Below are positions 5,285 through 29,536 of a stretch of DNA of 32,000 nucleotides, in pieces. How positions within the stretch are numbered: the first letter of the stretch is position 1; each line of letters starts with the position of its first letter. The DNA comes from an uncultured Candidatus Saccharimonas sp. Lineage in GTDB: Bacteria > Patescibacteriota > Saccharimonadia > Saccharimonadales > Saccharimonadaceae. The stretch is taken from NCBI GenBank assembly GCA_963528875.1, contig CAURWT010000003.1:1-32000 (forward strand), given 5' to 3'. The notes below the pieces were generated by a model. That model was not told the origin of the DNA and searched no databases. It worked only from the letters and a program-made list of their open reading frames with translations. The position numbers and the translations under genes were made by a program.

Positions 5285-5293
5285 TGGTATAAT
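5285..5293 (+). promoter_or_regulatory. Extended -10 box TGgTATAAT upstream of the 5303 CDS
   Basis: TGgTATAAT at 5285-5293; ATG at 5303, 9 nt downstream; no SD. Confidence 0.55.
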
Positions 5294-5302
5294 TATTTTA
5301 AT

Positions 5303-6757
5303 ATGAAGATTTCTCGAAAGAAGGAAAATGCACTCGTCTTCTTTAAAAACCTTGCTATGACTACAACTGTTTTTGGTATTGTTTTAATTTTGGTTTTTTT
5401 AACGCAAGGCTGGCGGCTTGATGAAAAATTTGAAGTTCAACAAACTGGTTTAGTTCAATTTAATTCTTCAGTTTTGAATTCGATTTCCGAAATTGACAAA
5501 AAAAAATTGCCAGAAGGAACACCCACAAAAATACTCGCAAAACCAGGAAACCACGAATTTTCAATCTGGAAAGAAGGCTATAAAACTTGGTGGCGGCGTG
5601 CTGAAGTTAAAATTGACGAAATCTTGTGGCTAAATTATGCAAGATTAGTCCCTAAACAACTTAATGAAAAGAGCTTTTTAAATATTTTAAATTTAAAATC
5701 TGCCCAAGTTTCACCAGATAAAAAGAAGATCTTTGCAATTTCTGAAGACAATAATGGCGAAGCGGCTTTTTGGCTGATTGATATTTCTTTAAGTGATCCA
5801 AAAATCTCGAGAATTAATTTTAACTCGAATATTTTTGAGCGTGATTCGCAAAATAATAAAAGTATAAACCAAACCAATTTTTATAAAATTGCAGAAAATT
5901 TGCAATTTTCTAAAGCTTCAAATGATAATAAAAAAGCGCTCTTAAGTTTTAAAAATGGCAATAAACTTGAATGGCTTATTTTGAATTTTGAAAATCCAGA
6001 TGAATCTATTAATTTAACTCAAAAATTCCATATTGATTTTTTGAAAATTATACCTTCAAATGATGAATTAAATAAGCTTGTTGGAATTTCTGGATCGGAT
6101 TTACGAGAAATCAATCTTTCGAATAGTACAATTTCTGCGGCAATTTTGAGTAATGTTGTTGATTTTGAACTTTATGACAAAGAGAATATTGTTTATGTTG
6201 AGAAAAAAACAACGAGTAATGATTTTTCGGTCGGTCTTCGAAAAAATGATAAAAATATTGAGATTGCAAAAAATATAAAAAATCAACCAAAGGTTGCGAT
6301 TGGGCGATATTATCGAGAAAGTTACGTTTATATTGGGCAAGATTCAAAAATTGATATTTATAAATCTGCTAGCTGGACAGAAAAAATGCATTTAACCAAA
6401 ACGCTTAATTTGAAATTCTCGCCAGATTATTTAAAGCTAAATGGTGAATCTCGGATTCTGGTTGCGAAAAAGGGCAAAGATGTTTATTCTTTTGATATTG
6501 AAACGCGGAATAAATATCAGTTCTCGGTATCAGATGATGGTAAGATAAAATGGCTTGATGATTTTATCTTGGGTGATTTTGAAGGTGAAAGAATGGCAAT
6601 TTATGATTTTGATGGAATGAACAAACAGATTCTTTCGCGGGCAATTTCAAATCTTCCATTTACGCTTTCTAATGATAATAAATATATTTATAGTTTTATT
6701 CAGAATAATTCTGGCGGATATTCTTTAAACCGCTTAAAAATGACAATTGAAGAATAA
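5303..6757 (+). CDS. Membrane-anchored protein with a PEGA-like domain and a large beta-rich extracytoplasmic region
   Basis: Start chosen at MKISRKKE (the ORF track begins at 5192, inside the divergent promoter region). One N-terminal TM (TTTVFGIVLILVFL). PEGA-like stretch LPEGTPTKILAKPGNHEFSIWKEGYKTW. Confidence 0.7.
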   Translation: MKISRKKENALVFFKNLAMTTTVFGIVLILVFLTQGWRLDEKFEVQQTGLVQFNSSVLNSISEIDKKKLPEGTPTKILAKPGNHEFSIWKEGYKTWWRRAEVKIDEILWLNYARLVPKQLNEKSFLNILNLKSAQVSPDKKKIFAISEDNNGEAAFWLIDISLSDPKISRINFNSNIFERDSQNNKSINQTNFYKIAENLQFSKASNDNKKALLSFKNGNKLEWLILNFENPDESINLTQKFHIDFLKIIPSNDELNKLVGISGSDLREINLSNSTISAAILSNVVDFELYDKENIVYVEKKTTSNDFSVGLRKNDKNIEIAKNIKNQPKVAIGRYYRESYVYIGQDSKIDIYKSASWTEKMHLTKTLNLKFSPDYLKLNGESRILVAKKGKDVYSFDIETRNKYQFSVSDDGKIKWLDDFILGDFEGERMAIYDFDGMNKQILSRAISNLPFTLSNDNKYIYSFIQNNSGGYSLNRLKMTIEE

Positions 6758-9839: not shown

Positions 9840-9915
9840 GCGGGTTTAGCTCAGTTGTTAGAGCGCTTCCTTGCCATGGAAGAGGCCAGGAGTTAGAGTC
9901 TCCTAACCCGCACCA
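9840..9915 (+). tRNA. tRNA-Gly (anticodon GCC), CCA encoded
   Basis: 76-nt cloverleaf: acceptor gcgggtt/aacccgc, D stem gctc/gagc, anticodon stem cttcc/ggaag, loop ttGCCat, T stem aggag/ctcct. G1-C72, C2-G71, G3-C70 match Gly identity. Unusual U19/A56 and A73. Confidence 0.93.
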
Positions 9916-13283: not shown

Positions 13284-13292
13284 GGAGTGGAA

Positions 13293-13700
13293 ATGATCAA
13301 GAAAGAAGAACTCTTACACCTTAAAGTTTGCGATTATCTGCGCAAGAACTACCCTGATGTGTTATTTCGCACAGATTTTAGCTCAGGTATGAAAATGAGC
13401 CCAGGCCAAGCCGCCAAGCACAAGAAATTTCAGAAAGGACGAGCTTGGCCGGATTTGTTCATTGCTGAAAGTAATAACTTCGCGAGCGGTCTATTTCTCG
13501 AAATTAAAGCTGAAAATGTTATTGTTTTTAAGAAGAATGGCGAAATTAGGCAGAATAAACATTTAATCGAGCAAGATAAAATGCTTAAAGAGCTAAGGAG
13601 TAAAGGTTATCGCGCAAGATTCGTGATTGGATATGATAAAGCAATTTTCGAAATTCAGCAATATCTTGGCGAACCAAAACCAAAGAAAGTCGAATTCTGA
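13293..13700 (+). CDS. VRR-NUC-type PD-(D/E)XK nuclease
   Basis: GRAWPDLFI...GLFLEIK...Q..ML..L...GY pattern. ATG at 13293 preferred over GTG at 13287 (SD aaggag at 13282-13287). Confidence 0.7.
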   Translation: MIKKEELLHLKVCDYLRKNYPDVLFRTDFSSGMKMSPGQAAKHKKFQKGRAWPDLFIAESNNFASGLFLEIKAENVIVFKKNGEIRQNKHLIEQDKMLKELRSKGYRARFVIGYDKAIFEIQQYLGEPKPKKVEF

Positions 13701-14019: not shown

Positions 14020-14235
14020 ATGGCAGGGAACAGAACAGGTGGCTTAAAAACCGCCGCAAAAAATAAGGAAAAATTCGGCAAAGATTTTTACGCCCGAATC
14101 GGCAAAAAGGGTGGGCAAAACGGCAAAACTGGCGGATTTTATAATAATCCAGAGCTAGCTAGACGCGCTGGGCGAAAAGGTGGTATAACTAGTAAGCGTG
14201 GTATGGCAAGGAAGGACAGTTATGAGGCAGCCTGA
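14020..14235 (+). CDS. KGG-repeat stress-induced protein homologue (YciG/GsiB-like)
   Basis: IGKKGGQNGKTGGFYNNPELARRAGRKGG matches the KGG repeat pattern (..AG.KGGQ..GG.F..DPE.A..AG.KGG) of YciG-type proteins; SD aaaggaga. Confidence 0.75.
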   Translation: MAGNRTGGLKTAAKNKEKFGKDFYARIGKKGGQNGKTGGFYNNPELARRAGRKGGITSKRGMARKDSYEAA

Positions 14236-15265: not shown

Positions 15266-15702
15266 TTCCAGCCTTACAAGGGGCGAAAGCCCGAATGTTC
15301 TAAAATATTTACGCAAAGGGAGGATTAAACTTTTTAATCGTCCCTTGTAGGGCTGGAAACTGACTGTATTCTAGATAGGAGGAGACGCTGAGTCCCAGAA
15401 TGGGGTAAGCAATATGCCGAGCACTCTCAATGCTTTTGCCTTCCTTTCAGTTTTTCAGTCCTACGCCCTGCCATATGGCGTTAAACTGGGCGTCGCAAAA
15501 CCTAATTTTATCCGTTCGAAAAACGGTTGCTTATAAAATATAATATGTCATAAATTCATAATAGTGGCGAAAGAAATTTCGCCCCTCGAACCTGAACATA
15601 ACTAAAAAACTATAAATAATATTTAATAGAGGTAGTAAATATAGTAATAGGTTGAGCGTATTAGCGTCCGTATACGCAAAAAGTTATGTTCAGATTTGAG
15701 GG
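15266..15702 (+). ncRNA. Candidate large structured non-coding RNA, class unknown
   Basis: 534-bp gap with no + strand ORF of 60 aa or more. It contains:
- long-range helices 15266-15280/15344-15358 and 15584-15602/15683-15701;
- GAAA-tetraloop hairpins 15281-15292 and 15566-15583;
- further hairpins 15323-15339, 15512-15526 and 15656-15677.
The G-U pairs and GNRA loops only work on the + strand. Confidence 0.5.
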
Positions 15703-16833: not shown

Positions 16834-16842
16834 TGATATAAT
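16834..16842 (+). promoter_or_regulatory. Extended -10 promoter TGaTATAAT for the 16893 gene
   Basis: tatgatataat is identical to the core of the host dnaE promoter; it sits in a 126-bp intergenic gap. Confidence 0.55.
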
Positions 16843-16892: not shown

Positions 16893-17357
16893 ATGCCAAA
16901 ATTAACAGAAATTGCAAAACAAATCTTAGCGGTTCTATATGCTCAATATATGAAAACACCTAATATAGTATTACAACAAGTATACTTTTCAGCTCAAGAT
17001 GGTCTTGATATTGACGATGATGACAATGAAGATTTAATAGATGCTTTAAAAGATATTTCGGGTAGCGAAGCTATGTTGTCTGCTTGTTTAAAATATTTGC
17101 TCGAAAGTGGTTATATCTCTTGTCAAAGTTTTTCCGAAATGATGGATTATAGTATTCTGTTTGTTGGAATTTCTCTAACTGCTAAAGGTATTGATTACTC
17201 AGAAGGTTTAATTAGAGGCGATGCTGAAAATATCAAACAAGCCGGATTAGTTATTAACGGTGATGTTAATTTATCACCGAAACTAGAATCTCTTTTGAAA
17301 GTATCAGATTTAACTGGTTTTGGTGAACTCTTTAAAGCTTTTTCACCTAAAGAATAG
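16893..17357 (+). CDS. Hypothetical protein with its own promoter (possible winged-helix N-terminus; moron-like)
   Basis: 154 aa; SD aaagga; flanked by promoter-like elements on both sides; acidic DIDDDDNED insert. Confidence 0.6.
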   Translation: MPKLTEIAKQILAVLYAQYMKTPNIVLQQVYFSAQDGLDIDDDDNEDLIDALKDISGSEAMLSACLKYLLESGYISCQSFSEMMDYSILFVGISLTAKGIDYSEGLIRGDAENIKQAGLVINGDVNLSPKLESLLKVSDLTGFGELFKAFSPKE

Positions 17358-17378: not shown

Positions 17379-17387
17379 TGATATAAT
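17379..17387 (+). promoter_or_regulatory. Extended -10 promoter TGaTATAAT upstream of the terminase operon
   Basis: 17377-17391 (tatgatataatataa) is a 15-nt exact match to 86-100 upstream of host dnaE. Confidence 0.6.
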
Positions 17388-17404
17388 ATAACTAAGGGAA
17401 TAAT

Positions 17405-17452
17405 GGGCACACTATCAGTCAAAAGATTGTTTAGTGTGCTCATTTTATTTTT
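17405..17452 (+). terminator. Intrinsic-terminator-like hairpin immediately downstream of the 17379 promoter
   Basis: gggcacacta(17405-17414)/tagtgtgctc(17432-17441), 10 bp with one G-U, then attttattttt. Confidence 0.6.
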
Positions 17453-17469: not shown

Positions 17470-17871
17470 ATGGCTAATCCTAATTTTAGTTCAAAAATAC
17501 TAATTCGTAAGCTAGAAGATGATTCAATAGTTGTTTTTTACGATAAGCATTCAATTTATATTAAGAGCCAAATGGGAATTTTAGTTTTTCATCGTTGGTT
17601 CGCTCCAAAAGGATATTACACTAAAAACTTCAAACCATTTTCTGAAATAGCTAAGCGCAAGAAACACTTAACAGTTAAATGCTTACTAGATGCTGGGTTA
17701 AAATATGGCGTAAGCTACGCTATGGGAACTAAAATACCAAAGCCAAAATCTGATAATCAAGAAATAAATTTTATTTCAGAAAAAGGAACTTGGACAAGAA
17801 GACTTACGGCGGACTATTATTCAGAAAAGGAAAAACAAGATATACTTAGAAAGATTGGTTATGGCGACTAA
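17470..17871 (+). CDS. Hypothetical phage protein, first gene of the packaging operon
   Basis: 133 aa from MANPNF (the GTG at 17434 lies inside the terminator hairpin, so it was rejected); overlaps the terS start. Confidence 0.6.
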   Translation: MANPNFSSKILIRKLEDDSIVVFYDKHSIYIKSQMGILVFHRWFAPKGYYTKNFKPFSEIAKRKKHLTVKCLLDAGLKYGVSYAMGTKIPKPKSDNQEINFISEKGTWTRRLTADYYSEKEKQDILRKIGYGD

Positions 17872-18283
17872 AAGAACAAAAGGTAAAGAGCGGATTTTTT
17901 CACCAAAGCAGATTAAATTTGGTATGTATTATTATTTGCCTGATTCTCCGACTTTTGGGAATGCGTTACAAAGTGCAATTCGTGCTGGTTTTTCTGAAAA
18001 ATACGCGAAGAATATTACGGTTAAGAATTTGGAATGGCTAGAAGATATTGTGGTGGAAATTGGTGGAAAAGGTGTTTCGAAAGATAAGCTTGTTCGTAAA
18101 GCTAAAAAAGTGCTAGATAAGAGCTTGGACAGTGAAGATGAAAAGATAGCGCAAGACACAGCTAAGTTTATTGCGAAGACTACAACAGAGTTTAGCGAAA
18201 AGCAAGATATAGTGTCGAACGGTGAAACGCTAACCGTTGCAACATTGGAGTTTGTGAATGGAGATAATCCGAAAGAAAGTTAA
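17861..18283 (+). CDS. Terminase small subunit
   Basis: FGNALQSAIRAGFSEKYAKN matches the GNateAAikAGYSektA HTH motif of Terminase_2-type small subunits; directly upstream of terL. Confidence 0.8.
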   Translation: MATKRTKGKERIFSPKQIKFGMYYYLPDSPTFGNALQSAIRAGFSEKYAKNITVKNLEWLEDIVVEIGGKGVSKDKLVRKAKKVLDKSLDSEDEKIAQDTAKFIAKTTTEFSEKQDIVSNGETLTVATLEFVNGDNPKES

Positions 18284-19523
18284 AGTTCCGATTGAATTTA
18301 AGCCACTGTTCGAAGAAAATAAATGGCGAAACCTTGTTTTTTATGGTGGGCGTTCGAGCGGAAAAAGCCACGACGTCGCACTCTCTCAGGTTTTAAGAGC
18401 GAGAGAAAAGAGATTGAAATTTTTAAACTGTCGAGAATTTCAGAACTCAATTAAAGACTCAACACACGCTTTAGTGAAAGCTATTATTTTTGAATACGGT
18501 TTTGAAACTGAATTTATAATTACTAATGATTCTATAAAACATAAAAGAACTGAAAGCGAATGGATTTTTAAAGGTTTGCATGACAACGTCGAAAGCTTGA
18601 AGTCTATACCGAATATTGATGAAGCTTGGGTTGAAGAGGCGAGCACCGTTACCAAGCGCTCTATTACGCTACTAAAAAACACTGTGCGTAAAGATAATTC
18701 GAGGCTTATTTTTACTTTTAACCGTGATACGGAACGTGATCCAGTCTATGTTGAATATGTGATGAAGAAGCCAGATAATACTTATGCAATTAAAGTAAAT
18801 TATGATGTGCTAGAAAAGAACGGGCTTTTCCCAGATGTGATGCGAATTGAGATGGAGAATGACAAGAAAAACAACCCTCAAGAGTTCGCTCATACTTGGT
18901 TAGGTGAGCCACTTTCGCAAATTGAAAATGCTATTTTGAGCCGTGATAGAGTGCTAAACGCTATGGATCGAGAGATAGAAGATGACGGCGAAATTCAAAT
19001 AGGCGTTGATGTGGCACGACTTGGTGATGACCGCTCTGTATTATGGAAGCGTAAAGGCTTAAAGACAATTGACTTTAAGGTTTACGAAAAACTCAGGACT
19101 AATGAGCTTGTGGAGAAAATAGAGCAGTTCGCCCAATTAGATAAGGAAGTGTTAATTAAAATCGATGACACGGGAGTTGGTGGTGGTGTTACTGATCAAT
19201 TATTAGCTAAAAATTACAATGTTCAAGGTATTAACTTTGCACAGAAAGCGGTGAATGATGACAAATACCCGAATTGGATCAGCGAAGCTTGGTTTCATCT
19301 TCAAAAAGTGATAGATGAAATACAACTGCCAAACAACACGGACTTGCTCCAAGAATTGACAACTAGAACTTGGAGTATGGATAAAAAAGGTAAGCGAGCG
19401 GTTGAAAGCAAGGGAGATTACAAGAAGCGGGGAAATAGAAGTCCTGACTTGGCTGATGCGTGCATCCTTTGTTATTATACGCCGCCAAAACCTAAACCTA
19501 TTGTTTATGCTGGCGTGAGATAA
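18258..19523 (+). CDS. Terminase large subunit (PBSX/Terminase_3-like)
   Basis: 421 aa; Walker A YGGRSSGKSH, Walker B-like IDEAWVEEAS, C-terminal RNase-H-like nuclease with IGVDVAR and DDTGVGGG. Confidence 0.92.
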   Translation: MEIIRKKVKVPIEFKPLFEENKWRNLVFYGGRSSGKSHDVALSQVLRAREKRLKFLNCREFQNSIKDSTHALVKAIIFEYGFETEFIITNDSIKHKRTESEWIFKGLHDNVESLKSIPNIDEAWVEEASTVTKRSITLLKNTVRKDNSRLIFTFNRDTERDPVYVEYVMKKPDNTYAIKVNYDVLEKNGLFPDVMRIEMENDKKNNPQEFAHTWLGEPLSQIENAILSRDRVLNAMDREIEDDGEIQIGVDVARLGDDRSVLWKRKGLKTIDFKVYEKLRTNELVEKIEQFAQLDKEVLIKIDDTGVGGGVTDQLLAKNYNVQGINFAQKAVNDDKYPNWISEAWFHLQKVIDEIQLPNNTDLLQELTTRTWSMDKKGKRAVESKGDYKKRGNRSPDLADACILCYYTPPKPKPIVYAGVR

Positions 19524-19532
19524 TGTAGCTCT

Positions 19533-19544
19533 GCTCGACTATTT
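19533..19544 (+). promoter_or_regulatory. Late-unit motif GCTCGACTATTT, copy 1 (upstream of portal)
   Basis: Exact 12-mer shared with 22226-22237 and 26537-26548; followed by the AT-rich -10-like TATATT (19550-19555), 6 nt before the ATG. Confidence 0.6.
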
Positions 19545-19561
19545 GAATTTATATTTTAAAT

Positions 19562-22099
19562 ATGTTTAGAGATTTTTTTAGCCGTTTGGTCGGCGGTAAT
19601 ATGAAAAAGAAGAGCGCCTCGCACTACGCTTTCAATCGGCCAAAATCAATGTTGGGTGCGCATACATTTTATAAAGGATTATCATATGATAATTCATATC
19701 CGTCTATTTCACGAATTGTAAATGAATTTATGACAATTAGGCCGTATGCGATAGATAATAACGGTAAAACAATTCAAGATTCGGTAGTGATGAATAAAAT
19801 ATATCATCCGAATCAACAGATGAGCGGTGCAACCTTCCGTGAAGCTTTAGCACTCCTAAGTTTGGTTTTTCCTAAAGTTTATGTTTTGGTTTGGAGCTAT
19901 AATGAACAGGGCGCTCCAACAACTGGACAAAATATTACTCCTGAAAATATAGCAGGGTTTACTATTCTTGAGGGAGTAACTGAATATTATGTTGGTGAAG
20001 AGAAGCGCTATCGAGTTGGTGCTAAAGAATACTCTGAAAATGAAATTATTGAACTGCGAAGTGGGGTTAATCCATATGATTTGAGCGGAGGATATAGCCC
20101 GACTGATGCTGCTCGAAAATGGGCATCGATTGATGATTATATCGCAAGTTATCAAGCTGGTTATTTTGAAAACGGCGCTGTGCCTGCTGGACAGTTTATT
20201 ATTACCGCTGGAAGTGTTGAAGAATATAATAATATTGTTGATGATCTGCAAGCACGACACCGTGGTAGTGGCAATAATAACAATGTGGTTTATGTTCATC
20301 GCCCAATTGAGAGTGCAACAGGTAAGCCAGTTAATGCTCAGATTGAGTGGGTACCATTTGCTGAGAGTAACAAGAATCTTGACTTAAAGAGTCTATTTGA
20401 CCAAGCTAACAAGAAAATTGACAGTATTTACGGCGTCCCTGCAAGTGTTCGAGGTGTGAATGATAATAACACTTATGCCAGTGTGCGAGTGGATGAGCAG
20501 ATTTTTATTAAATATACGATCAGGCCTTTTGCAACACGGATTTGGAGTGAATTTACACATCAACTGAACCGAATTACAGGCGGCTTAGGTTTTGCTATCA
20601 CTTTTGACCTTGATATTCCTGGTGTGGCCGAAGAAGAAAAGATTGAAGCTGAGCGTAAAGCAGCTGAATTAACTTTGATTAAGACTGGCTTAGAAATGGG
20701 CTATTCATTAGACAGTATAGTTGATGCATTTGAGCTCTCGAATGGCTATAAAACGCTTAAAATGGGTGAAACTCCACTAAAAATTGAGAATGATAAGCCT
20801 GAAGTTGATGACGGCGGCGAAGTTGAAGAATCGCCAGAAGATTTAAACGCAAAAAGCGCGCATATCTGTAATGAGTGCGGAGAACACCACTGTTTAAAAG
20901 CTGATAGGAAAACAAAAAACGAAAAGCAAAAAGATAAAGACCAGAATGCACTAGAAACTGTCTTTCGTGATATGACTAATGAGCAGATTGAGCGAGCTAT
21001 CGAGAGTGATTTTGAAGATTTTGACCTTGGCGATAAAGATCGTGAAAAATTCAAGCAAAGAATAAAGGTGATATTGCTGAGCGTGCTGGTAACCCGTGGT
21101 GTGGTGGCTTGGAGTGATTTTGTTTCAATATTAAAGCAAAACAACATATCGACTGATGACCTAACCGAATTTAAGCTTTCTGATAAGCTGAAAAAACATT
21201 ATGACAAAATGATAGCTGATTTTACTAAGAGTTTTAGTGAAGATACGGCCAAGTCGATTGCTAACAGAGTTGCTCAAGCAGAAATAGAAGACTGGAATAA
21301 GGAACAGTTAGCTCGTAGCTTGCGAGATATAACAAAAACCGAAGAATGGCGAATTCAGCGAATAGCTCGCACTGAAACACACCGAGCACACGGCCTGGCT
21401 GGCGTGGAGGCTGGTGTGCAAATTCAGAATGAATCTGGCGTGCAGATTTATAAAGAGTGGGTGGTCGTTTCGCACAATCCTTGCAAATATTGCCGTGGAA
21501 TGAACGGCAGACGAGTTAATGTAACTGAAAGTTATGTTAAAAAGGGTGGAATTTTGATTGGCAAATCGAAAATCCGAGTTAATGATTATGCTGATATCGA
21601 CACGGCTGGTGCTCACCCAAACTGTTCTTGTGTGGAGAAGTTTGGGATTGAAGAAAATAATAGTGAACCTTGGCGGAGCGTTGAAATTGAAGAGTTGCCA
21701 GCTGAGAAATTTAATGAGGTTTATGGTAAGGATTGGAAAGGCTTTAGTTTTGAAACTGAGCCACCATTAAACCAAAGAGAAAAAGAGATTGCACAAATCT
21801 TTTCAGCGCAAACAAAAAAGACACCTTTAGCGATTAGGCGAGTTGAAAAGCCGGATGGTATAAAAACTCCAGACTTATTAGTCGATGATAAGAAATTTGA
21901 GATTAAGAAAGTATCGAGCCCACGTTCGGTAGAAGATCAATTAAGGAAGGCACGTAAACAAGGAGCTTTTGGCGTAATTCTTGATATAGATGATGAAAAA
22001 TATAATTTTGAAGTTTTAGCTGCAGAGATAAAGAGAAGGCAAAAGCAGTTTAAGATTGAAGAAATATATAAGATATTGAATAACGAGATTATAGACTAA
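19562..22099 (+). CDS. Portal protein fused to a MuF/SPP1-gp7 head-morphogenesis domain and a C-terminal PD-(D/E)XK-like (putative nuclease/toxin) domain
   Basis: 845 aa.
- Residues 1 to ~430 are Phage_portal-like (FENGAVPAG, GVPASV, TIRPF).
- Residues ~560-691 are MuF-like (RIARTETHRAHG ... CKYCRGMNG ... AHPNCSCV).
- Residues ~700-845 carry TPDLLVDDKKFEIKK (PD-x8-ExK).
The start is uncertain (19562 has no SD; alternative is 19601). Confidence 0.85.
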   Translation: MFRDFFSRLVGGNMKKKSASHYAFNRPKSMLGAHTFYKGLSYDNSYPSISRIVNEFMTIRPYAIDNNGKTIQDSVVMNKIYHPNQQMSGATFREALALLSLVFPKVYVLVWSYNEQGAPTTGQNITPENIAGFTILEGVTEYYVGEEKRYRVGAKEYSENEIIELRSGVNPYDLSGGYSPTDAARKWASIDDYIASYQAGYFENGAVPAGQFIITAGSVEEYNNIVDDLQARHRGSGNNNNVVYVHRPIESATGKPVNAQIEWVPFAESNKNLDLKSLFDQANKKIDSIYGVPASVRGVNDNNTYASVRVDEQIFIKYTIRPFATRIWSEFTHQLNRITGGLGFAITFDLDIPGVAEEEKIEAERKAAELTLIKTGLEMGYSLDSIVDAFELSNGYKTLKMGETPLKIENDKPEVDDGGEVEESPEDLNAKSAHICNECGEHHCLKADRKTKNEKQKDKDQNALETVFRDMTNEQIERAIESDFEDFDLGDKDREKFKQRIKVILLSVLVTRGVVAWSDFVSILKQNNISTDDLTEFKLSDKLKKHYDKMIADFTKSFSEDTAKSIANRVAQAEIEDWNKEQLARSLRDITKTEEWRIQRIARTETHRAHGLAGVEAGVQIQNESGVQIYKEWVVVSHNPCKYCRGMNGRRVNVTESYVKKGGILIGKSKIRVNDYADIDTAGAHPNCSCVEKFGIEENNSEPWRSVEIEELPAEKFNEVYGKDWKGFSFETEPPLNQREKEIAQIFSAQTKKTPLAIRRVEKPDGIKTPDLLVDDKKFEIKKVSSPRSVEDQLRKARKQGAFGVILDIDDEKYNFEVLAAEIKRRQKQFKIEEIYKILNNEIID

Positions 22100-22156
22100 A
22101 AATAGACCAGCTCGCCGAGTCCTATGCAGGACACGACCGCTGGTCTATTTATTTTT
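22100..22156 (+). terminator. Strong intrinsic terminator after the portal fusion gene
   Basis: aaatagaccagc(22100-22111)/gctggtctattt(22139-22150) with an inner gtcct/aggac stem, followed by atttttg. Confidence 0.75.
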
Positions 22157-22225
22157 GTAAGCCTTACTATTTAAATATTATCATATTTAAGTAAAAAAGT
22201 CAATATTATCTAATTATTTTGTATA

Positions 22226-22237
22226 GCTCGACTATTT
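22226..22237 (+). promoter_or_regulatory. Late-unit motif GCTCGACTATTT, copy 2 (upstream of the protease-capsid gene)
   Basis: Exact 12-mer preceded by tGTAta; TAATATTAATT follows 5 nt downstream. Confidence 0.6.
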
Positions 22238-22279
22238 GCTAGTAATATTAATTTGTAATAGTAAATTTAAAGAGGAAAT

Positions 22280-23989
22280 ATGGCAGAAAAAGTTAAGAAA
22301 ACAGCACTGGAGCTGAAAACTGAAATTTCGAAGTCCGTGGGAGAAAATGAGGAGCGAAAAATTAGGTTTGTGGCATCGAGTGTAAACGAAGATCGCCATT
22401 ACGAGAAAGTGGACGTTGCGAGCCTTCGCCTACCTTTAAAGCAAGGTGGTGAGATCCGAGCTGGAGCAATTCCGACGGAAGGAGTGAATGATTTAGTGGA
22501 TATTCCACTAATTCTAAACCATTCTGGTGATGTTCGGGACACAATTGGCTCAGTGCGAAGTGCTTTCTATGAAAATGGTGAGCTGATTTTTGAAGCGGGT
22601 ATCTCAAAACGGGAAATAGCACAAGAAATGCTGCTACTTCTTGAAGAAGGACACCTATCAAATGCGTTCTCAATTACAATGTCAGATTTTGACTATAATT
22701 TTGAAAGCGAAACGATTAGTAACGCTGAGATTATTGAGGTGAGCTTGGTTTTCCGCGGAGCTAACAGAGAAGCAAGGCTTTTGGCCGTAAAATCTCTGAA
22801 AGGTGATGAAATGAGCCAAGAAAAAGAAACTCCAGAAGTTTTGAAAAAAGAGGCGACAACTACAGTTTATCCTGAGGTTGTAGCAGACGATGAACCTGAG
22901 GTTGAGCAGGCTGAAAATTCAACCGAAAATAATAATTATAACGAAGAGAAAGAGGAAGAAATGGATAAAGAAATTGCAAAAGATGCTATTTCAAAAGCAG
23001 CACCAAGCCAAGCTGTGAAGTCTTCAAGTAATTACCTTGAAACTCGTGAGGCGATGAATGACTATGCGAAAATTCTTGAGAAATTTGCTGGTGCTAACGC
23101 TAACGAAGTGAAGAAAGCTTGGGCTGATCATGTAGCACAAAAAGGTATTAGTAATGTTGATGTTCTACTACCAGGAGCAATGGTTTCAGCAATTAGCGAT
23201 GGAATCGAGAAATCTGGAACAATTTGGAACATTCTAAATAAGACTGGATTAACTGTTCGCCGAATTGATGCCGAAACAGCTGATGCTCGAGCACAAGGAC
23301 ATAAACGTGACACAACTAAAAAAGAAGCAACATTAACATTTACTGATCGTGTGATTCGTGCTGGTTTCATCTATGATTATCTAAAATTGAACAAAGAAGA
23401 TATTGTAGAAAACCGTGATACTGGTGCTTTGGTGAAATTCGTGCTTGAAACTTTGCCAAAACGAATTATTACTGAAATTGAACGAGCAGTAGTGATTGGT
23501 GATGGTCGAAGTGGTGAAGATGACAAAATCAATAGCTTTGTTTCAATCCTAGAAGATGCTAAGAATGGAGTTTTTGCCACTGAATATACACCCGCTAAAG
23601 ATGAGTCACTTTACAAGTCAATTGTTAAAGCAGCTACAAAAATTGTTCCAGAAGGTGATGTATATATTGTTATGAGCAAATCTGCGAAAGCTGAGCTAAA
23701 ACTTTCTGAAACTAAGAGCGGTGCGCTTGTGTTCCCACTTGGTGGTGATATTGCTGGAACTTTGGAAGTTAAAGAAATCTTTACTCCAAGCTGGTTTGCA
23801 CCAGAAGGCGTTCAGGCTGTAATGTTTGTAGGTGATGCTTACGAAACAGTTGGTGATAATTCAATTGAAGCTTACACAAACTTCTCACTAAGCCAGAATA
23901 AACAAGAGTATCTACAAGAAATTTACGCTGGTGGTGCTTTGGCGAAAGTTAAAGCTGGTGTAGTAATTAAAAATCCTGCTTCGGCTTAA
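22280..23989 (+). CDS. Prohead protease (HK97/S78-like) fused via an acidic linker to an HK97-fold major capsid protein
   Basis: 569 aa. N-terminus: FVASSVNEDRHYEKV, ILNHSGD..IGSV, LSNAFSI (protease His/Ser contexts). Residues ~180-240 are an acidic low-complexity linker. C-terminal ~300 aa are capsid-like (ERAVVIGDGRSG). Confidence 0.8.
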   Translation: MAEKVKKTALELKTEISKSVGENEERKIRFVASSVNEDRHYEKVDVASLRLPLKQGGEIRAGAIPTEGVNDLVDIPLILNHSGDVRDTIGSVRSAFYENGELIFEAGISKREIAQEMLLLLEEGHLSNAFSITMSDFDYNFESETISNAEIIEVSLVFRGANREARLLAVKSLKGDEMSQEKETPEVLKKEATTTVYPEVVADDEPEVEQAENSTENNNYNEEKEEEMDKEIAKDAISKAAPSQAVKSSSNYLETREAMNDYAKILEKFAGANANEVKKAWADHVAQKGISNVDVLLPGAMVSAISDGIEKSGTIWNILNKTGLTVRRIDAETADARAQGHKRDTTKKEATLTFTDRVIRAGFIYDYLKLNKEDIVENRDTGALVKFVLETLPKRIITEIERAVVIGDGRSGEDDKINSFVSILEDAKNGVFATEYTPAKDESLYKSIVKAATKIVPEGDVYIVMSKSAKAELKLSETKSGALVFPLGGDIAGTLEVKEIFTPSWFAPEGVQAVMFVGDAYETVGDNSIEAYTNFSLSQNKQEYLQEIYAGGALAKVKAGVVIKNPASA

Positions 23990-24008
23990 TTGAAAGGAGA
24001 GGGCTAAG

Positions 24009-24401
24009 ATGAAACAACCGATTTCAAAAGATGAGATTGTGGCGTTAATCGGACGCCCTCTCTCTTCTTATGAAGAACAGAACTTTACAATTTTGAATGA
24101 GTTAACTTCGGAACGCTTGAATAGACTGTTGAATGGTGGGTTTGATTCTACAACTGACTGGACATCGGGGCTGAAGATGTTGTATGCGCGATTGTTTAAT
24201 ATTAGTGAGTTAGAACGAAACCATGATGCGAGCATTTCAAGAAAAGCCGTAGATGGCTATAGTGTAGATTTTAAAGAAAATACCAATTATTACGCTCAAT
24301 TCTGCGAAGAAAACGCAGATTTAATAGCTAAATATAGAATTTCTAACGGTGGAATTCGACACGGAAAGACTATTTATGAGGATATTCGATACTTTTTCTG
24401 A
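24009..24401 (+). CDS. Head-tail connector (gp6-like DNA-packaging/adaptor protein)
   Basis: 130 aa; first gene after the capsid in a conserved siphovirus order. Assigned by synteny and size only. Confidence 0.55.
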   Translation: MKQPISKDEIVALIGRPLSSYEEQNFTILNELTSERLNRLLNGGFDSTTDWTSGLKMLYARLFNISELERNHDASISRKAVDGYSVDFKENTNYYAQFCEENADLIAKYRISNGGIRHGKTIYEDIRYFF

Positions 24402-24717
24402 AACGGAGTATTCATTTTTACGAGTTAATCGAGGGAATGTTTACGGCAACACGATTGAAGAAGAGTTGACGAACCGAAAAGGAGTGTTTCGTGAAAAATC
24501 TGGAATGAAACGAGGCGCAAACGGTGAAGAGTTTGCAGAAAATTCAACACTGTTCGTAAAACCTGAAGATATTCCAATAGATGCCGTTGGCAATGGTATT
24601 CGAATAAATCACAAGACTTATACCATTATTGCAATGCACGAAGGTAAAAACTTTGATACCAATGAAGTGGAACATTTGAAACTAACTTTGGAAAGGGCGA
24701 GCTATGGCGAAGGTTAA
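24376..24717 (+). CDS. Head closure / head-tail adaptor protein
   Basis: Synteny. ATG at 24376 preferred to GTG at 24349; the start is uncertain. Confidence 0.5.
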   Translation: MRIFDTFSETEYSFLRVNRGNVYGNTIEEELTNRKGVFREKSGMKRGANGEEFAENSTLFVKPEDIPIDAVGNGIRINHKTYTIIAMHEGKNFDTNEVEHLKLTLERASYGEG

Positions 24718-25036
24718 GGTGACGTTTAATAGCAAAATGAAAGCTTATTTGCAAGTTCAGCGATTGAATATGCAAAAAGAGCTTGAGGCTAAGGCGGAAA
24801 AAACGCTTGGTCGAGCTCGAATGCTTGCTCCTGTTCTATCTGGTGATCTAAAAATGAATGGTCGAGTGGAAAAAATACCAAATGGGGTTTCTGTGGTATT
24901 TGGTGATAGTCGGATTCCTTATGCTCGACGAAGGCACTTTGAAAACCGCAAAAATCCAGCAACGATAAACTATTTGGAACGAGCTGGTAATCAAACCAAG
25001 AAAGAAGGCTTTATAATTATGAAAGGAGATAAATGA
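24704..25036 (+). CDS. HK97 gp10-family tail-completion/neck protein
   Basis: 110 aa; ARMLAPVLSGDLKMNG resembles the gp10-family a.P..tG.Lr motif; synteny. Confidence 0.6.
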   Translation: MAKVKVTFNSKMKAYLQVQRLNMQKELEAKAEKTLGRARMLAPVLSGDLKMNGRVEKIPNGVSVVFGDSRIPYARRRHFENRKNPATINYLERAGNQTKKEGFIIMKGDK

Positions 25037-25416
25037 TTACGCTAAATTTGCTAAAACTCCTTGAAAATAACGGATTTGGTAAGATTGATAAAAACCTTTT
25101 CTGGCAGAAGCTTGGCCTTGGTAAAACTGGCTTGTATATCTCGAACATATCAGTGAATGGAGAGCGCGGCAAGCGAAGAGTTCAGCATTATGAGATTTTC
25201 AGTATTGGTGAAAACGATGTTGAGGGTTTAAAAAAACTTGAATCTGTCGCTGAATTCTTGCGAGAGAATTACGCAATTAATGAATTACCAGCCGTGGATG
25301 GAATTTGTGAAAAAGTTCGAAATGTGGCGATTATGCCACCCTCTACGATTTCGAATGTAGGAGAGAATGGCCAAGGAAGAGTGGTTTATTCAATAAGTGG
25401 AGAAATAATTTATTAA
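25033..25416 (+). CDS. Tail terminator / tail completion protein
   Basis: 127 aa; ATGA overlap with the previous gene; position just before the tail tube gene. Confidence 0.5.
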   Translation: MITLNLLKLLENNGFGKIDKNLFWQKLGLGKTGLYISNISVNGERGKRRVQHYEIFSIGENDVEGLKKLESVAEFLRENYAINELPAVDGICEKVRNVAIMPPSTISNVGENGQGRVVYSISGEIIY

Positions 25417-25428
25417 GAAAGGAAAAAT

Positions 25429-25974
25429 ATGGCAACGACATATGAAAAAACATTAAATGCTGGACTTTGGGAACTTGCTCTGGGTGATGTTCTAATTCCT
25501 GCTGAACTTTTGGGCGATATTAAAACTAAAATCGCTCTTAAAACAGTTGAAAAAGACACTCAAGCGGGAACTTCGAAACGCCGAACTAATGTAGTGGATA
25601 CTGCGGAGGCAACTTTTACGCTTTATGTTCCGAGTTTGGATTTCTTGGGTAAAATATTCCCTGAATATTACACAAGAAGCACTGCTGGCGGTGGAGCTGT
25701 AACCTTTGGCGGTAAGAATGTAAAAGTGGCTGAAATGCCAGTTAATATGCATCAAAAAGGCGCTGAAACTGATGAAAATGACGTGCATTTCTTTAAAGCA
25801 ACAGTCAATGTGGACTTTGAGCTATCGCAGACAACAAGCGATGATCCGAGCGTAGAAATTACATTGAATGCCCAACCAACTGACAAGGGCTATGTGCGAC
25901 TTGGAACTGGCGACCTAACTAAAAAGTCTATTTACGATGTTGCTACTCAGGCGACAAAAGCAGTAGCTGGGTAG
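25429..25974 (+). CDS. Major tail (tube) protein
   Basis: 181 aa; position between the neck genes and the chaperones/tape measure; no sheath gene is present, so siphovirus-type. Confidence 0.6.
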   Translation: MATTYEKTLNAGLWELALGDVLIPAELLGDIKTKIALKTVEKDTQAGTSKRRTNVVDTAEATFTLYVPSLDFLGKIFPEYYTRSTAGGGAVTFGGKNVKVAEMPVNMHQKGAETDENDVHFFKATVNVDFELSQTTSDDPSVEITLNAQPTDKGYVRLGTGDLTKKSIYDVATQATKAVAG

Positions 25975-25987
25975 GAAAATAGATATG

Positions 25988-26019
25988 AAAAACGCCCCTA
26001 TTCATTGGGGGCGTTTTTT
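25988..26019. terminator. Bidirectional intrinsic terminator between the tail tube gene and the antisense moron
   Basis: aaaaacgcccc(25988-25998)/ggggcgttttt(26008-26018), 9-nt loop; A-run and T-run on either side. Confidence 0.8.
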
Positions 26020-26035
26020 GATATTGAAAAATAGT

Positions 26036-26473
26036 TTAGTTGGCGTATTTTTTATGTAGTTTCAAGCAAGCATTAATTCGATTCTTAGCGCTGGTAGCGG
26101 CCATCAGTAAACCATCGTAAGTGTAAGCATTTGAGCCCATTTTACCACCTTTAGTGTATTCACCCCTTAATACTAGGGTTCCTTTTGTGGTGTAAAGCAT
26201 ATTTTCGAAAATATATTTAGTCTTTTTACCCGCAGAATCTTTAATTTGGCGATAATCGAAGCCTTTAATCTCGTCCCAAGAAAAAGTTTGCACAGTTTCA
26301 TATTTAAAAGCTGAACCATATGAAAATTGAAGCTCTACGCCACCATTATAAGTAATTTTGAGGCGAGCTTTAGCGACTATTTCTTCTATTCCTTCGAAGT
26401 CGCCGTCGTAGTTGCCTAAAACATACTGGCGCATATTTAGACTTTTAATTCTTAGTTTATCTATAAAATTCAT
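26036..26473 (-). CDS. Antisense moron: 145-aa beta-rich protein of unknown function
   Basis: The only minus-strand gene in the prophage. Own RBS (gaaagg) and an AT-rich promoter region at 26474-26530; own terminator. No recognisable motif. Confidence 0.7.
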   Translation of the reverse strand: MNFIDKLRIKSLNMRQYVLGNYDGDFEGIEEIVAKARLKITYNGGVELQFSYGSAFKYETVQTFSWDEIKGFDYRQIKDSAGKKTKYIFENMLYTTKGTLVLRGEYTKGGKMGSNAYTYDGLLMAATSAKNRINACLKLHKKYAN

Positions 26474-26536
26474 AATATAAATACCTTTCTTATATTTAGA
26501 TTTTATATCTTTTAACGCCTAAAATCAACTGTATTA

Positions 26537-26548
26537 GCTCGACTATTT
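26537..26548 (+). promoter_or_regulatory. Late-unit motif GCTCGACTATTT, copy 3 (upstream of the tail operon)
   Basis: Exact 12-mer preceded by tGTAtta; TAATATTATTT follows 5 nt downstream. Confidence 0.6.
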
Positions 26549-26595
26549 AGAATTAATATTATTTCATAAGATTAAAATGCTGAATGGAGGATTAT

Positions 26596-26967
26596 ATGAC
26601 AGCGATTAGTATTACAATTGAAGATTTAGGTGTAAAAAAACGTGACTTTGAAATTGAAGGCAAAGTCTTTACTTTTACGAAGCCAATGGCTGGGCATGAG
26701 CTGGAAAAAAGCCAAATTATGTCAAAAATTGTGCGTTTACAAAATGAGATGGTTAAGATGCGAAAACGGGGTGAAGAAAACCTTGATGAAACGAAAATTG
26801 AAGAAATATTAACTGAAATAGATAATTTGACAGAACGCTTGATAAATCACTCTGCAAAATTAGTAAGTGATGGAACGCCAGAAAATCTTGGTGGTAAAGA
26901 ATTTGTGTCTAAATATGGTGAAGATGGCATTAAATTATTGACTAAGCGACTATTTGGCGAGGAATAG
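26596..26967 (+). CDS. Tail assembly chaperone (gpG-like)
   Basis: Start at MTAIS (SD ggagga; the track start is 26584); position just upstream of the tape measure; acidic, helical. Confidence 0.6.
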   Translation: MTAISITIEDLGVKKRDFEIEGKVFTFTKPMAGHELEKSQIMSKIVRLQNEMVKMRKRGEENLDETKIEEILTEIDNLTERLINHSAKLVSDGTPENLGGKEFVSKYGEDGIKLLTKRLFGEE

Positions 26968-27346: not shown

Positions 27347-29536
27347 ATGACTACAGTTGGAACAATTAACTATGATTTCACTGCTGATACTAAAGATTTA
27401 GACGAAAAACTGACCAGGTCTGAGAAGGAAGTCAAAAAGAAAGCCGAGGAGCAGAAAAACGCTTATCGTGACAGTTGGTCTTCGATAGGCGATTTTGCGA
27501 TTAAAGGTGCGGCAGTAGCTAGTGCTGCTGTTGGTGCCCTTGGTGCTGCTGCAGTTGGAGCATACTCAAGCTATGAACAGCTAACTGGTGGTGTGGAAAC
27601 GCTTTTTAAGAGTTCTTCAAATACAGTGATGAATTATGCTAACCAAGCCTATAAGACTGCTGGAATGAGTGCGAATAAATATATGGAAACCGTGACTAGT
27701 TTTTCAGCAAGTCTTCTCCAGGGCTTGGGTGGTGACACGGAAAAAGCAGCTAAATATGCAGACAAGGCTGTGGTGGCGATGAGTGATAACGCCAACAAGA
27801 TGGGAACATCGATGGAATTAATTCAATATGCCTATCAAGGGTTCGCAAAACAGAATTACACGATGCTTGACAACTTGAAGCTTGGCTATGGCGGAACTGC
27901 TAGCGAAATGGCTCGTTTGGTTAATGAATCTGGTGTAATGGGTAAGAGTTTTAAAGCAACGGCTAAGAATATCAATGAAGTTTCATTTGATAAGATTATT
28001 GAAGCGATTAGCGTTACTCAAGATAGACTAGGTATCACTGGAACGACTGCAAAAGAGGCTAGCTCAACAATTGAAGGTTCTTTTAATTCAATGAAGGGAG
28101 CTTGGGAGAACTTCATCACTGCGCTAGCTGGTGGTGGTGATTTGGAAACAACTTTCAATAATTTAGTTGAGTCGGTTAAGATCTGGCTGGGAAATTTAGT
28201 GCCTGTGGCTAAAAAAGCATTTGAGAGTATTGCTAAAGTAGCTTTTAAAGCTTTCGATGATGCGTTTAAAGATATGCCTGGTGGTGATATTATTAAATCT
28301 TTAGTTGTTGTAGTAGGAACTCTAACTGCCGCACTAACAACATTAGGCGTAGTTATGAAGATAGCAGCTGCAGCTCAAGCTCTGCTTAATTTCGTAATGG
28401 CGGCTAATCCTATTGTCTTGATAGTAATGGCTATTGCTGCTTTGGTGGCGGGATTAGTATATTTCTTTACTCAGACGGAAATGGGAAAGAAGATTTGGCA
28501 AGACTTCTGTAATTTTATAGGTGAAGTCTTTAAAAATATCGGCAAATGGTTAGGTGAAGTTGGTGCGAATATTGGTGCATTCTTTAAGGGAATCGGTGAC
28601 TTTTTCGTTGGAATATGGAACGGCATAACTAGCTTATTTAACGGGATTGTGGAATTCTTTAAACAATGGGGCTTAACTATTCTTGCGGTTATTTTTTGGC
28701 CTATATCCTTGCTAGTTGGTTTATTCTTTACCTTTAAAGATCAGATTATTGGGTTCTTCCAGTCGGCATGGAACGGAATAATGGCGATTTGGAATGGAGT
28801 AACAGCCTTTTTTGGTTTAGTTTGGAACGGAATTGTGGCGATATTTACACCAGTGATACAATTTTTTGGTGCAATATTTCAATCGGCATGGAATGGGATT
28901 ATGGCGATTTGGAACGGTGTAGTTTGGTATTATACGACTATTTGGAATGGAATTAAGGCAGTATTTGGTGTTGTAGCTGGATTCTTTATTGGTGTATTCA
29001 CTACAGCCTGGAATGGTATAAAAAATGTCTTTTCAGGTGTGTTTGGCTTTTTTGCTGGCGTTTGGAATGGAATAGTTGGCATATTTAAAGGTGTTGGGGA
29101 TGCAATTGGTGGTGCAATTAGCGGTGCGGTTAAATGGGCTATTAATGGCGTATTGGGCTTTGCTGTTGGTATGATTAATGGCTTTATTGATATGGTTAAT
29201 ATTGCTATTGGTATCATTAACGCTATCCCTGGGGTGCATATCGGAAAATTGGAAAAACTAAATGTGCCACGCTTTGAGACTGGTGGTATTGTCGGCCCTC
29301 AAGGTGGTGGAAGCTTGATTTGGGCTGGTGATGGTGGCGAGAATGAATGGATCGTGCCTGAAAGCAAGATGGCGAGCCTGATTGATAAAATCAACAGTCA
29401 AACTGGCGGAACTGGTGGTAATAACTATACTATTAACGTGAGCGGAACTTTTGCGACAAGCCCTGCCGAACAACGAAAAGTAGCTGAATTGATTCGTGAG
29501 CAGTTAGAACTAAACGATAAGAGGAGGTTTGCATAA
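27347..29536 (+). CDS. Tail tape measure protein
   Basis: 729 aa; N-terminal helical region, central hydrophobic segments with a WNG(I/V) repeat array, Gly-rich C-terminus; largest tail gene in the canonical position. Confidence 0.9.
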   Translation: MTTVGTINYDFTADTKDLDEKLTRSEKEVKKKAEEQKNAYRDSWSSIGDFAIKGAAVASAAVGALGAAAVGAYSSYEQLTGGVETLFKSSSNTVMNYANQAYKTAGMSANKYMETVTSFSASLLQGLGGDTEKAAKYADKAVVAMSDNANKMGTSMELIQYAYQGFAKQNYTMLDNLKLGYGGTASEMARLVNESGVMGKSFKATAKNINEVSFDKIIEAISVTQDRLGITGTTAKEASSTIEGSFNSMKGAWENFITALAGGGDLETTFNNLVESVKIWLGNLVPVAKKAFESIAKVAFKAFDDAFKDMPGGDIIKSLVVVVGTLTAALTTLGVVMKIAAAAQALLNFVMAANPIVLIVMAIAALVAGLVYFFTQTEMGKKIWQDFCNFIGEVFKNIGKWLGEVGANIGAFFKGIGDFFVGIWNGITSLFNGIVEFFKQWGLTILAVIFWPISLLVGLFFTFKDQIIGFFQSAWNGIMAIWNGVTAFFGLVWNGIVAIFTPVIQFFGAIFQSAWNGIMAIWNGVVWYYTTIWNGIKAVFGVVAGFFIGVFTTAWNGIKNVFSGVFGFFAGVWNGIVGIFKGVGDAIGGAISGAVKWAINGVLGFAVGMINGFIDMVNIAIGIINAIPGVHIGKLEKLNVPRFETGGIVGPQGGGSLIWAGDGGENEWIVPESKMASLIDKINSQTGGTGGNNYTINVSGTFATSPAEQRKVAELIREQLELNDKRRFA
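28757..28921 (+). repeat. Intragenic direct repeat in the tape measure gene (120-nt period)
   Basis: FQSAWNGIMAIWNGV is encoded twice (28757-28801 and 28877-28921) within about ten WNG(I/V) motifs spanning roughly 28.6-29.1 kb. Confidence 0.85.

Follow-up and report, generated by a model that had tools for sequence, protein, structure and literature searches.

The 32,000-nucleotide stretch analyzed here (the window; positions 1 to 32,000 of contig CAURWT010000003.1) comes from an uncultured Candidatus Saccharimonas sp., an oral TM7 bacterium of the candidate phyla radiation (CPR), and carries a prophage in which a 12-base sequence, GCTCGACTATTT, hereafter the box, recurs ahead of the late genes. 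Host genes, among them dnaE and those for enolase, a PEGA protein and an M20 peptidase, fill positions 1 to ~9800. The prophage begins after a tRNA-Gly(GCC) gene, its likely integration site, and extends beyond the right end of the window; the phage type is a temperate siphophage of Candidatus Saccharimonas of roughly 29 kb. Its genes include those for a Rad52-like annealase and a YqaJ exonuclease, and its late region holds terS and terL, a portal-MuF-CdiA_C fusion gene, a protease-capsid fusion gene and the tape measure gene, along with genes for head-tail adaptor and distal tail proteins (Table 1). A preliminary description of the window had proposed that the box marks the start of all three late transcription units. 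Our analysis points to a class of phage late promoters in which a factor bound at the box would make up for a missing -35 element.

The box and its promoter register

Exact copies of the box number three, all on the + strand and all in intergenic prophage DNA, with none in coding or host DNA of the window. The first begins 10 nt past the terL stop (19523), ahead of the portal ATG (19562); the second lies downstream of the intrinsic terminator that ends the portal unit; and the third lies downstream of a bidirectional terminator and a reverse-strand open reading frame (ORF). These placements agree with the preliminary description. Allowing one mismatch adds two matches, at 2808 (inside dnaE) and 8836 (- strand), which are due to chance since both sit in host genes and have no downstream hexamer of the kind described below. 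With up to two mismatches the window holds 9 matches, compared with 3.0 +/- 1.4 in shuffled sequences, and none of 100 shuffles reached 9. Boxes all lie downstream of terL, and upstream of terS there is none within two mismatches. The box is not dyad-symmetric; it is asymmetric and points in the direction of transcription.

Exactly 5 nt past the end of each copy begins a TAnnnT hexamer, the type of -10 element read by the primary sigma factor, a spacing that sharpens the earlier report of an AT-rich, -10-like block 4-5 nt away. With the hexamer set at -12 to -7, the box spans -29 to -18 and thus lies, as had been suspected, in the spacer/-35 region. Given the 18-nt spacer, a vestigial 'TT' stands at the start of the -35 hexamer, which is otherwise missing (TTnnnn), and the -10 has no TGn extension. 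A standard -35/-10 scan does not flag any of the three promoters. The recognizable host-type promoters in the window are of a different kind, as the preliminary description had also noted, being extended -10 elements (TGnTATAAT) at 88 and 5285 in host DNA and at 16834 and 17379 in the prophage. The promoter of tRNA-Gly(GCC) is canonical, TTGACT-N17-TAAAAT.

From the end of the -10 to the start codon the distance is 6 nt for the portal gene, 31 nt for the capsid gene and 36 nt for the tail unit, the latter two having Shine-Dalgarno (SD) sequences, AAGAGGA before the ATG at 22280 and GGAGGA (26586-26591) before the ATG at 26596. The box is therefore held at a constant distance from the hexamer and at a variable one from the start codon, unlike the start-associated sequences of Cluster K mycobacteriophages, which stand at a fixed distance to the start codon. 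Nor do the box promoters belong with those of sigma-54, which have GG at -24 and, ten bases further on, GC at -12: GG is missing from the box, and TAnnnT is the element downstream.

Between the hexamer and the portal ATG there are 6 nt in four lineages (the window type and its relatives L224, L226 and L227) and 7 nt in L125. None of these five lineages has an SD sequence before the portal ATG, and the N-terminus of the portal protein (MF..) is conserved. Because a start 7 nt past the -10 would make the portal mRNA begin with AUG, we predict that this mRNA is leaderless; the ATG without an SD sequence in turn lends independent support to the predicted transcription start, from which we infer that transcription begins at the box promoters. 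The portal genes of L137 and L225 have a leader with an SD sequence instead. Two host genes, dnaE and the PEGA-domain gene, share the portal layout (88-107 and 5285-5305), with TGnTATAAT, an ATG 8-9 nt later and no SD sequence, and leaderless or near-leaderless mRNAs therefore seem to be normal in this Saccharimonas. A box-like element found directly after the portal terminator is perhaps a relic or a second, weak promoter in tandem, and the stem of that terminator carries GCTGGTCTATTT, two mismatches from the box.

Table 1. Features of the window and box promoters of related lineages (ΔG, folding free energy; pI, isoelectric point)
Feature	Position	Strand	Description
Late promoter P1 (portal)	19526-19555	+	vestigial -35 position 19526-19531, box 19533-19544, N5 19545-19549, TATATT 19550-19555
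Late promoter P2 (protease-capsid, head-tail genes)	22219-22248	+	TTGTAT at -35 position, box 22226-22237, N5, TAATAT 22243-22248
Late promoter P3 (tail chaperones, tape measure, distal tail)	26530-26559	+	box 26537-26548, N5, TAATAT 26554-26559
Box-like element	22161-22184	+	GCCTTACTATTT-N6-TATCAT; also in L136
Extended -10 promoter	17379-17387	+	TGATATAAT; host-type; ahead of candidate gene and terS-terL
Leader hairpin and U-run	17402-17443	+	ΔG -28.7, z -6.4; precedes ribosome-binding site of candidate gene
Candidate factor ORF	17470-17871	+	133 aa, pI 9.7; immediately upstream of terS
terS	starts 17855
terL	18258-19523
Portal-MuF-CdiA_C fusion gene	19562-22099	+	Pfam and PHROG matches
Intrinsic terminator ending portal unit	22100-22150	+	ΔG -25.8 kcal/mol, z -4.6, then U-run
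Protease-capsid fusion gene	22280-23989	+
Bidirectional terminator ending head/major-tail unit	25987-26019	both directions	ΔG -21.7, z -6.0
Tape measure protein	27347-29536
tRNA-Gly(GCC)	9840-9915		left prophage boundary
Box aligned on -10 hexamer, window			GCTCGACTATTT
Box promoters, L137-L139, L152-L155			TGCCACCCTRTAT-N5-CATAAT, before portal, capsid and tail genes; box aligned on -10 hexamer (L137) GCCACCCTRTAT
Box promoters, L224, L227			TGCCACCC-type boxes, directly after terminators; boxes aligned on -10 hexamer (L224) GCCACCCTCGTT / GCCACCCTTCAC
Box promoters, L225			TTGACA-C-GCCAGACTTTT-N6-TAnnnT, before portal, capsid and tail genes; box aligned on -10 hexamer GCCAGACTTTTn

The box in related prophages

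A scan with a 20-base gapped pattern, together with protein-based searches, yielded ~25 loci of the same phage type, in metagenome-assembled genomes (MAGs) of Candidatus Saccharimonas / Saccharibacteria; the protein comparison among these relatives covered a first set of the loci. The gapped pattern was the informative scan: the 14-mer TAGCTCGACTATTT gave at least 120 matches in viral contigs, those listed being mostly unrelated contigs that we took as chance. A literature search with the motif string, in which papers on Saccharibacteria prophages were covered by title and abstract, returned unrelated primer matches only.

The arrangement of box, N5 and TAnnnT holds in all three window copies and in 13 independent contexts of relatives. 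Across those 13 contexts box positions 1-10 carry 1.6-2.6 bits each, the three fixed bases of the hexamer (T, A, T) carry 1.6-1.7 bits each, and N5 and both flanks are near 0 bits. Just upstream, a T stands 7 nt before the start of the box in 13/13 contexts and another 6 nt before it in 11/13; these are conserved in place of the GTA that had been noted 2-8 nt upstream of the window copies, which is not conserved in relatives and amounts to noise. The box is also kept where its flanks have been replaced (L005, L134, L135, L136, L009 and L131): the P1 module is retained in L005 and L134, and the P2 box in L135 and L136, despite unrelated upstream flanks. In all, the module is found in at least six settings with unrelated flanks, one of them ahead of the lysis genes.

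Among the relatives RCTCGACTATTT-N5-TAnnnT precedes the portal gene, the capsid gene and three alternative tail modules, the same module stands before a further tail unit, and a box at L020:7286 precedes a holin/Amidase_5 lysis cassette, which encodes a 130-aa protein and an Amidase_5 endolysin. Each relative has 4-5 box sites (the window has 3), every one of them late and in register with a -10. The proposal that the box opens the late units thus holds for the three units in the window and needs redrawing at both ends: terS-terL, which sits behind a host-type extended -10 promoter without a box, is outside the regulon, and the relatives add copies such as the one at the lysis cassette.

More distant prophages, with capsid proteins 36-60% identical, have different boxes, GCCAGACT or GCCACCCT, in the same register and at the same gene junctions (Table 1). 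Between the L137, L138 and L139 MAGs N5 differs, and the box and -10 are fixed. When the lineages are aligned on the -10 hexamer, G0, C1, C6 and T7 are invariant and a 4-nt core varies, the core of GC-NNNN-CT being TCGA, CAGA or CACC; invariant positions around a variable core would be the pattern expected of a co-evolving protein-DNA interface. In L125 the box is unchanged. De novo clustering of 12-mers at 10/12 matches was too noisy, and searches seeded with intergenic sequence were therefore used. Seeded from the terL-portal spacer, such a search found no repeated box in terL relatives at 54-58% identity (L145-L151).

Two of the distant lineages have arrangements of their own. In L226 (9725-20260) a common CTTGCCW occupies the -35 position of the late promoters, separated from TAnnnT by N17-18, with no spacer box, and two of these promoters share a longer CTTGCTAC...AGGGTT motif. 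The terL-portal spacer of L227 (L227:7495-7965) holds three consecutive units of a hairpin and T-run, each followed by TGnTATAAT, which may give rise to small transcripts. The CdiA_C toxin-like domain forms the C-terminal part (aa 768-836) of the portal-MuF fusion protein in the window; L225 has the same fusion, and in L226 MuF and CdiA_C form a separate gene after the portal gene.

The prophage has further features of note. The reverse-strand ORF between the bidirectional terminator and the third box (26036-26473, 145 aa) has no family match and looks like a moron; it is 94-97% identical in relatives, and L125 has a 33% variant in the same slot. A small ORF at 14020-14235 encodes KGG stress-protein repeats (Pfam, E 1.6e-9) and is also found in the related phages L005, L011, L127, L223 and L224. 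A non-coding gap of ~530 nt between early genes includes a structured stretch (15266-15530; minimum free energy -91 kcal/mol, z -3.4) that may be a phage non-coding RNA; an Rfam search of the window returned the tRNA only, with no family for this stretch. In the relative L020/L143 the integrase is at the opposite end of the ~29-kb phage genome. A near-identity search against 50,697 GenBank phages gave no match for the prophage, and an exact-product look-up of terL found no record.

A candidate factor and the readings of the box

The preliminary description had found no identifiable regulator in the window and had suggested two ORFs as candidates. One of them, the 133-aa basic protein encoded upstream of terS, can now be named as a plausible box-reading factor, through a link that is circumstantial; the other, 16893-17357, is unlikely and was rejected, being acidic (pI 4.3) and found in one relative only. 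The gene for the candidate lies directly upstream of terS in all close relatives compared, and the pI of its homologues is 9.4-10.4. With the distant L137 lineage the phage has just two non-structural proteins in common, the candidate and the product of 13287-13700, which has a PD-(D/E)xK nuclease motif and was set aside as a regulator. Searches of the early ORFs against Pfam, PHROGs and NCBIfam gave no sigma, helix-turn-helix, MotA/AsiA, Ogr/Mor or RinA/ArpU domain.

The candidate's protein family co-occurs with the box. A profile of the family matches every box-bearing lineage (E 1e-28 to 1e-44) and has no match in the box-less terL relatives L145, L150 and L151, each with 10 kb of upstream coverage; no homologue was found in the terL relatives L145-L151. 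In L225, where the core of the box changes, the candidate is 30% identical compared with 74-76% for the adjacent terS/terL, and in L125, where the box is unchanged, it is 57% identical. The P0010 contig encodes a homologue 49% identical and ends 13 nt past terL, too early for its box to be read. The family is small, with 93 cluster representatives in 1.8 billion proteins, mostly of ~100 aa, and has no Pfam family. An AlphaFold2 (AF2) model of the candidate is confident (pLDDT 84), and its modeled fold is novel: searches of two AF2 models against PDB and BFVD retrieved only the candidate's own orthologue and one uncharacterized viral protein of ~106 aa, the PDB giving no match, and PDB sequences searched with a profile likewise yielded nothing meaningful. 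The hairpin and U-run in the leader of the candidate gene may be a terminator or attenuator gating the late switch; in L221 a hairpin and U-run of different sequence occupy the same place (z -3.7).

We consider it likely, with a probability of about 0.6, that the box is the specificity element of a class of phage late promoters that need a phage factor at -29 to -18 to compensate for the missing -35. The register, the conservation independent of flanks, the variants in the same register, the leaderless start, the lack of RNA structure at the boxes and the absence of the box from coding and host DNA all support the earlier suggestion of a dedicated late-promoter element or phage-regulator site. 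In the scheme that we propose, host RNA polymerase alone would initiate poorly at box promoters, and a DNA-binding factor of the phage, encoded in the preceding operon and with the 133-aa protein as its best candidate, would bind the box and supply the missing upstream contact. Binding would switch on, in parallel, late units insulated from one another by terminators: the portal unit, transcribed as a leaderless mRNA starting at its AUG; the capsid, connector and major tail genes; the tail assembly genes; and, in relatives and beyond the window, further tail genes and lysis.

Several observations weigh against this proposal. The register would also fit an operator that overlaps the promoter, and the L225 box lies between a perfect TTGACA and a -10, so that this promoter might work unaided and its box might be a repressor site. 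The candidate has no recognizable DNA-binding domain in family and fold searches, and L226 encodes a homologue of it although its late promoters are without a spacer box. Protein and box do vary together, but the phages as a whole diverge along with them, which confounds the association. Finally, terS and terL, which are also late functions, are outside the box regulon.

The first two of these points lead to the best surviving alternative, which we nevertheless regard as unlikely, namely that the box is the operator of a phage repressor. The late promoters would then be intrinsically active and silenced in the lysogen by a lineage-specific DNA-binding protein lodged between -35 and -10, and the box types would correspond to immunity groups, as the operators and stoperators of Cluster A mycobacteriophages do. 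A location in the spacer is typical of repressors, L225 has TTGACA-N18-TAnnnT around its box, and an asymmetric site that is co-oriented with transcription and occurs in lineage-specific variants is reminiscent of stoperators (PMC6550527). However, the window type, L137, L224 and L227 have no usable -35 or TGn, and low unaided activity would be expected of their promoters. The sites also lie solely at promoters and in one fixed register, whereas most stoperators are not promoter-associated (PMC6550527), and the candidate gene belongs to a lytic-strand operon upstream of terS rather than to a lysogeny module by the integrase.

Less probable still is a composite promoter in which box and -10 are read directly by an alternative sigma factor, encoded by the host or, elsewhere in its genome, by the phage. 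Phages can encode such factors (SPO1 gp28 and gp34, T4 gp55), and the conserved upstream element, its fixed spacing from the -10 and the lack of a canonical -35 would all fit. The -10, however, is of the housekeeping TAnnnT type, and the box ends 5 nt from it, well downstream of the usual contact of sigma region 4. Neither the early ORFs of the window nor, in a complete relative, the segment from the tail genes to the integrase yielded a sigma-like domain, and the phages of this one host group have three or more box types, which speaks against a host sigma factor in particular.

We give very little weight to the idea that the repeats are module-boundary homologies for recombination between mosaic phages, or recent duplications with no regulatory role. 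Mosaic breakpoints do coincide with the box in several relatives, and the phage has the annealase and exonuclease mentioned above. Yet conservation of ~12 + 3 bases with a free N5 fits selection on a protein-DNA interface rather than hitch-hiking, strand and register relative to the genes are strict, diverged box variants hold the same register, and the leaderless portal start depends on the hexamer downstream. The least credible reading is a signal at the RNA level in read-through transcripts (a processing site, translational operator or antitermination element): all copies are on the strand of the genes and read-through from terL would carry transcription across copy 1, but strong terminators precede copies 2 and 3, structure at the three boxes does not exceed shuffled controls (z -0.55, 0.04 and 0.43), and the distance to the start codon ranges from 6 to >40 nt with that to the hexamer fixed.

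To our knowledge, there is no experimental knowledge of transcription timing in phages that infect Saccharibacteria or other CPR bacteria, and CPR promoters are barely characterized. The present analysis offers a precise promoter model, with a box, a register, predicted starts and a leaderless portal mRNA, and a shortlist reduced to one plausible regulator of novel fold. It thereby provides a first testable handle on gene timing in viruses of these hard-to-culture bacteria, and direct testing is feasible now that TM7 strains can be grown on their hosts. The box permits the annotation of late-operon boundaries in TM7 prophages, and the natural series of variants should be useful for studies of specificity. 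Genetic tools are nearly lacking for this group, and the box could become a source of orthogonal promoter/factor pairs under tight regulation. Should the factor prove to be an ordinary repressor, a clean regulon map would still result, of modest general interest. We also put forward, tentatively and as a possibility that we would not bet on, that the candidate family (~100-140 aa) represents a previously unrecognized class of promoter-specificity factors, which would bind an asymmetric spacer box at -29 to -18, allow host RNA polymerase with its primary sigma factor to initiate without a -35, and have their specificity set by the 4-nt core of the box, co-evolving with it. In that case Saccharibacteria phages would have a compact late-gene switch with a variable specificity core.

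Comparison with known systems

In architecture the closest relatives of the box promoters are the middle promoters of T4, whose MotA box has its centre at -30 and is separated from the sigma-70 -10 by 12 +/- 1 bp (PMC2988021). In both systems a host-type -10 (TAnnnT) is kept, a phage box at fixed spacing replaces the -35, and many dispersed promoters form one temporal class. The box described here lies ~5 bp closer, ending 5 nt from the -10, its sequence is unrelated, a vestigial 'TT' of the -35 remains, and the host of this small temperate siphophage is a CPR bacterium. Pfam, PHROG and NCBIfam searches of the early ORFs revealed no homologue of MotA or AsiA, the proteins of T4 sigma appropriation, and the model of the candidate has no match in the PDB, MotA structures included.

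The closest parallel in logic, multi-operon late activation, is provided by the P2 Ogr and Mu C regulons. One small phage protein (P2 Ogr or P4 Delta, Mu C) activates several late operons that share a site before a poor -35; the sites of Ogr and Mu C have dyad symmetry and are located over the -35 or further upstream, at about -55 for Ogr. The box, in contrast, is asymmetric and inside the spacer, and no Ogr_Delta or Mor/C domain was detected. By genomic position the candidate is more reminiscent of RinA, ArpU and LtrA-C, small proteins of Gram-positive siphophages that are encoded immediately upstream of terS and are proposed as activators of morphogenesis and lysis genes (PMC3152322, PMC3753634). 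Their target is a promoter region that lies upstream of terS and governs the late operon (PMC3152322). Here terS-terL has no box, and at least 4-5 internal promoters insulated by terminators carry it. Neither 17470-17871 nor 16893-17357 matched RinA, ArpU or LtrA-C in Pfam, NCBIfam or PHROGs, and the fold of the candidate is dissimilar.

The stoperators of Cluster A phages are likewise asymmetric, co-oriented repeats with lineage-specific variants that track the cognate protein, and they are spread genome-wide, over early and late regions (PMC6550527, PMC9283540). Away from promoters, where most of them lie, the immunity repressor binds them to block elongation (PMC6550527). The sites described here differ in being few, all late, and each in exact register with a -10 hexamer, and no repressor was identified. 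MerR-type promoters share with the box promoters a regulator site within the spacer. Theirs is a palindromic operator in an over-long spacer of 19-20 bp between a good -35 and a good -10, a position from which activation is possible; the promoters described here have a non-palindromic box, an 18-bp spacer and a vestigial -35, and family searches of the ORFs found no MerR-family protein or domain. The box promoters thus depart from each of these families in at least one defining feature, and they are, on the reading that we prefer, activator-dependent phage late promoters of a new variety.

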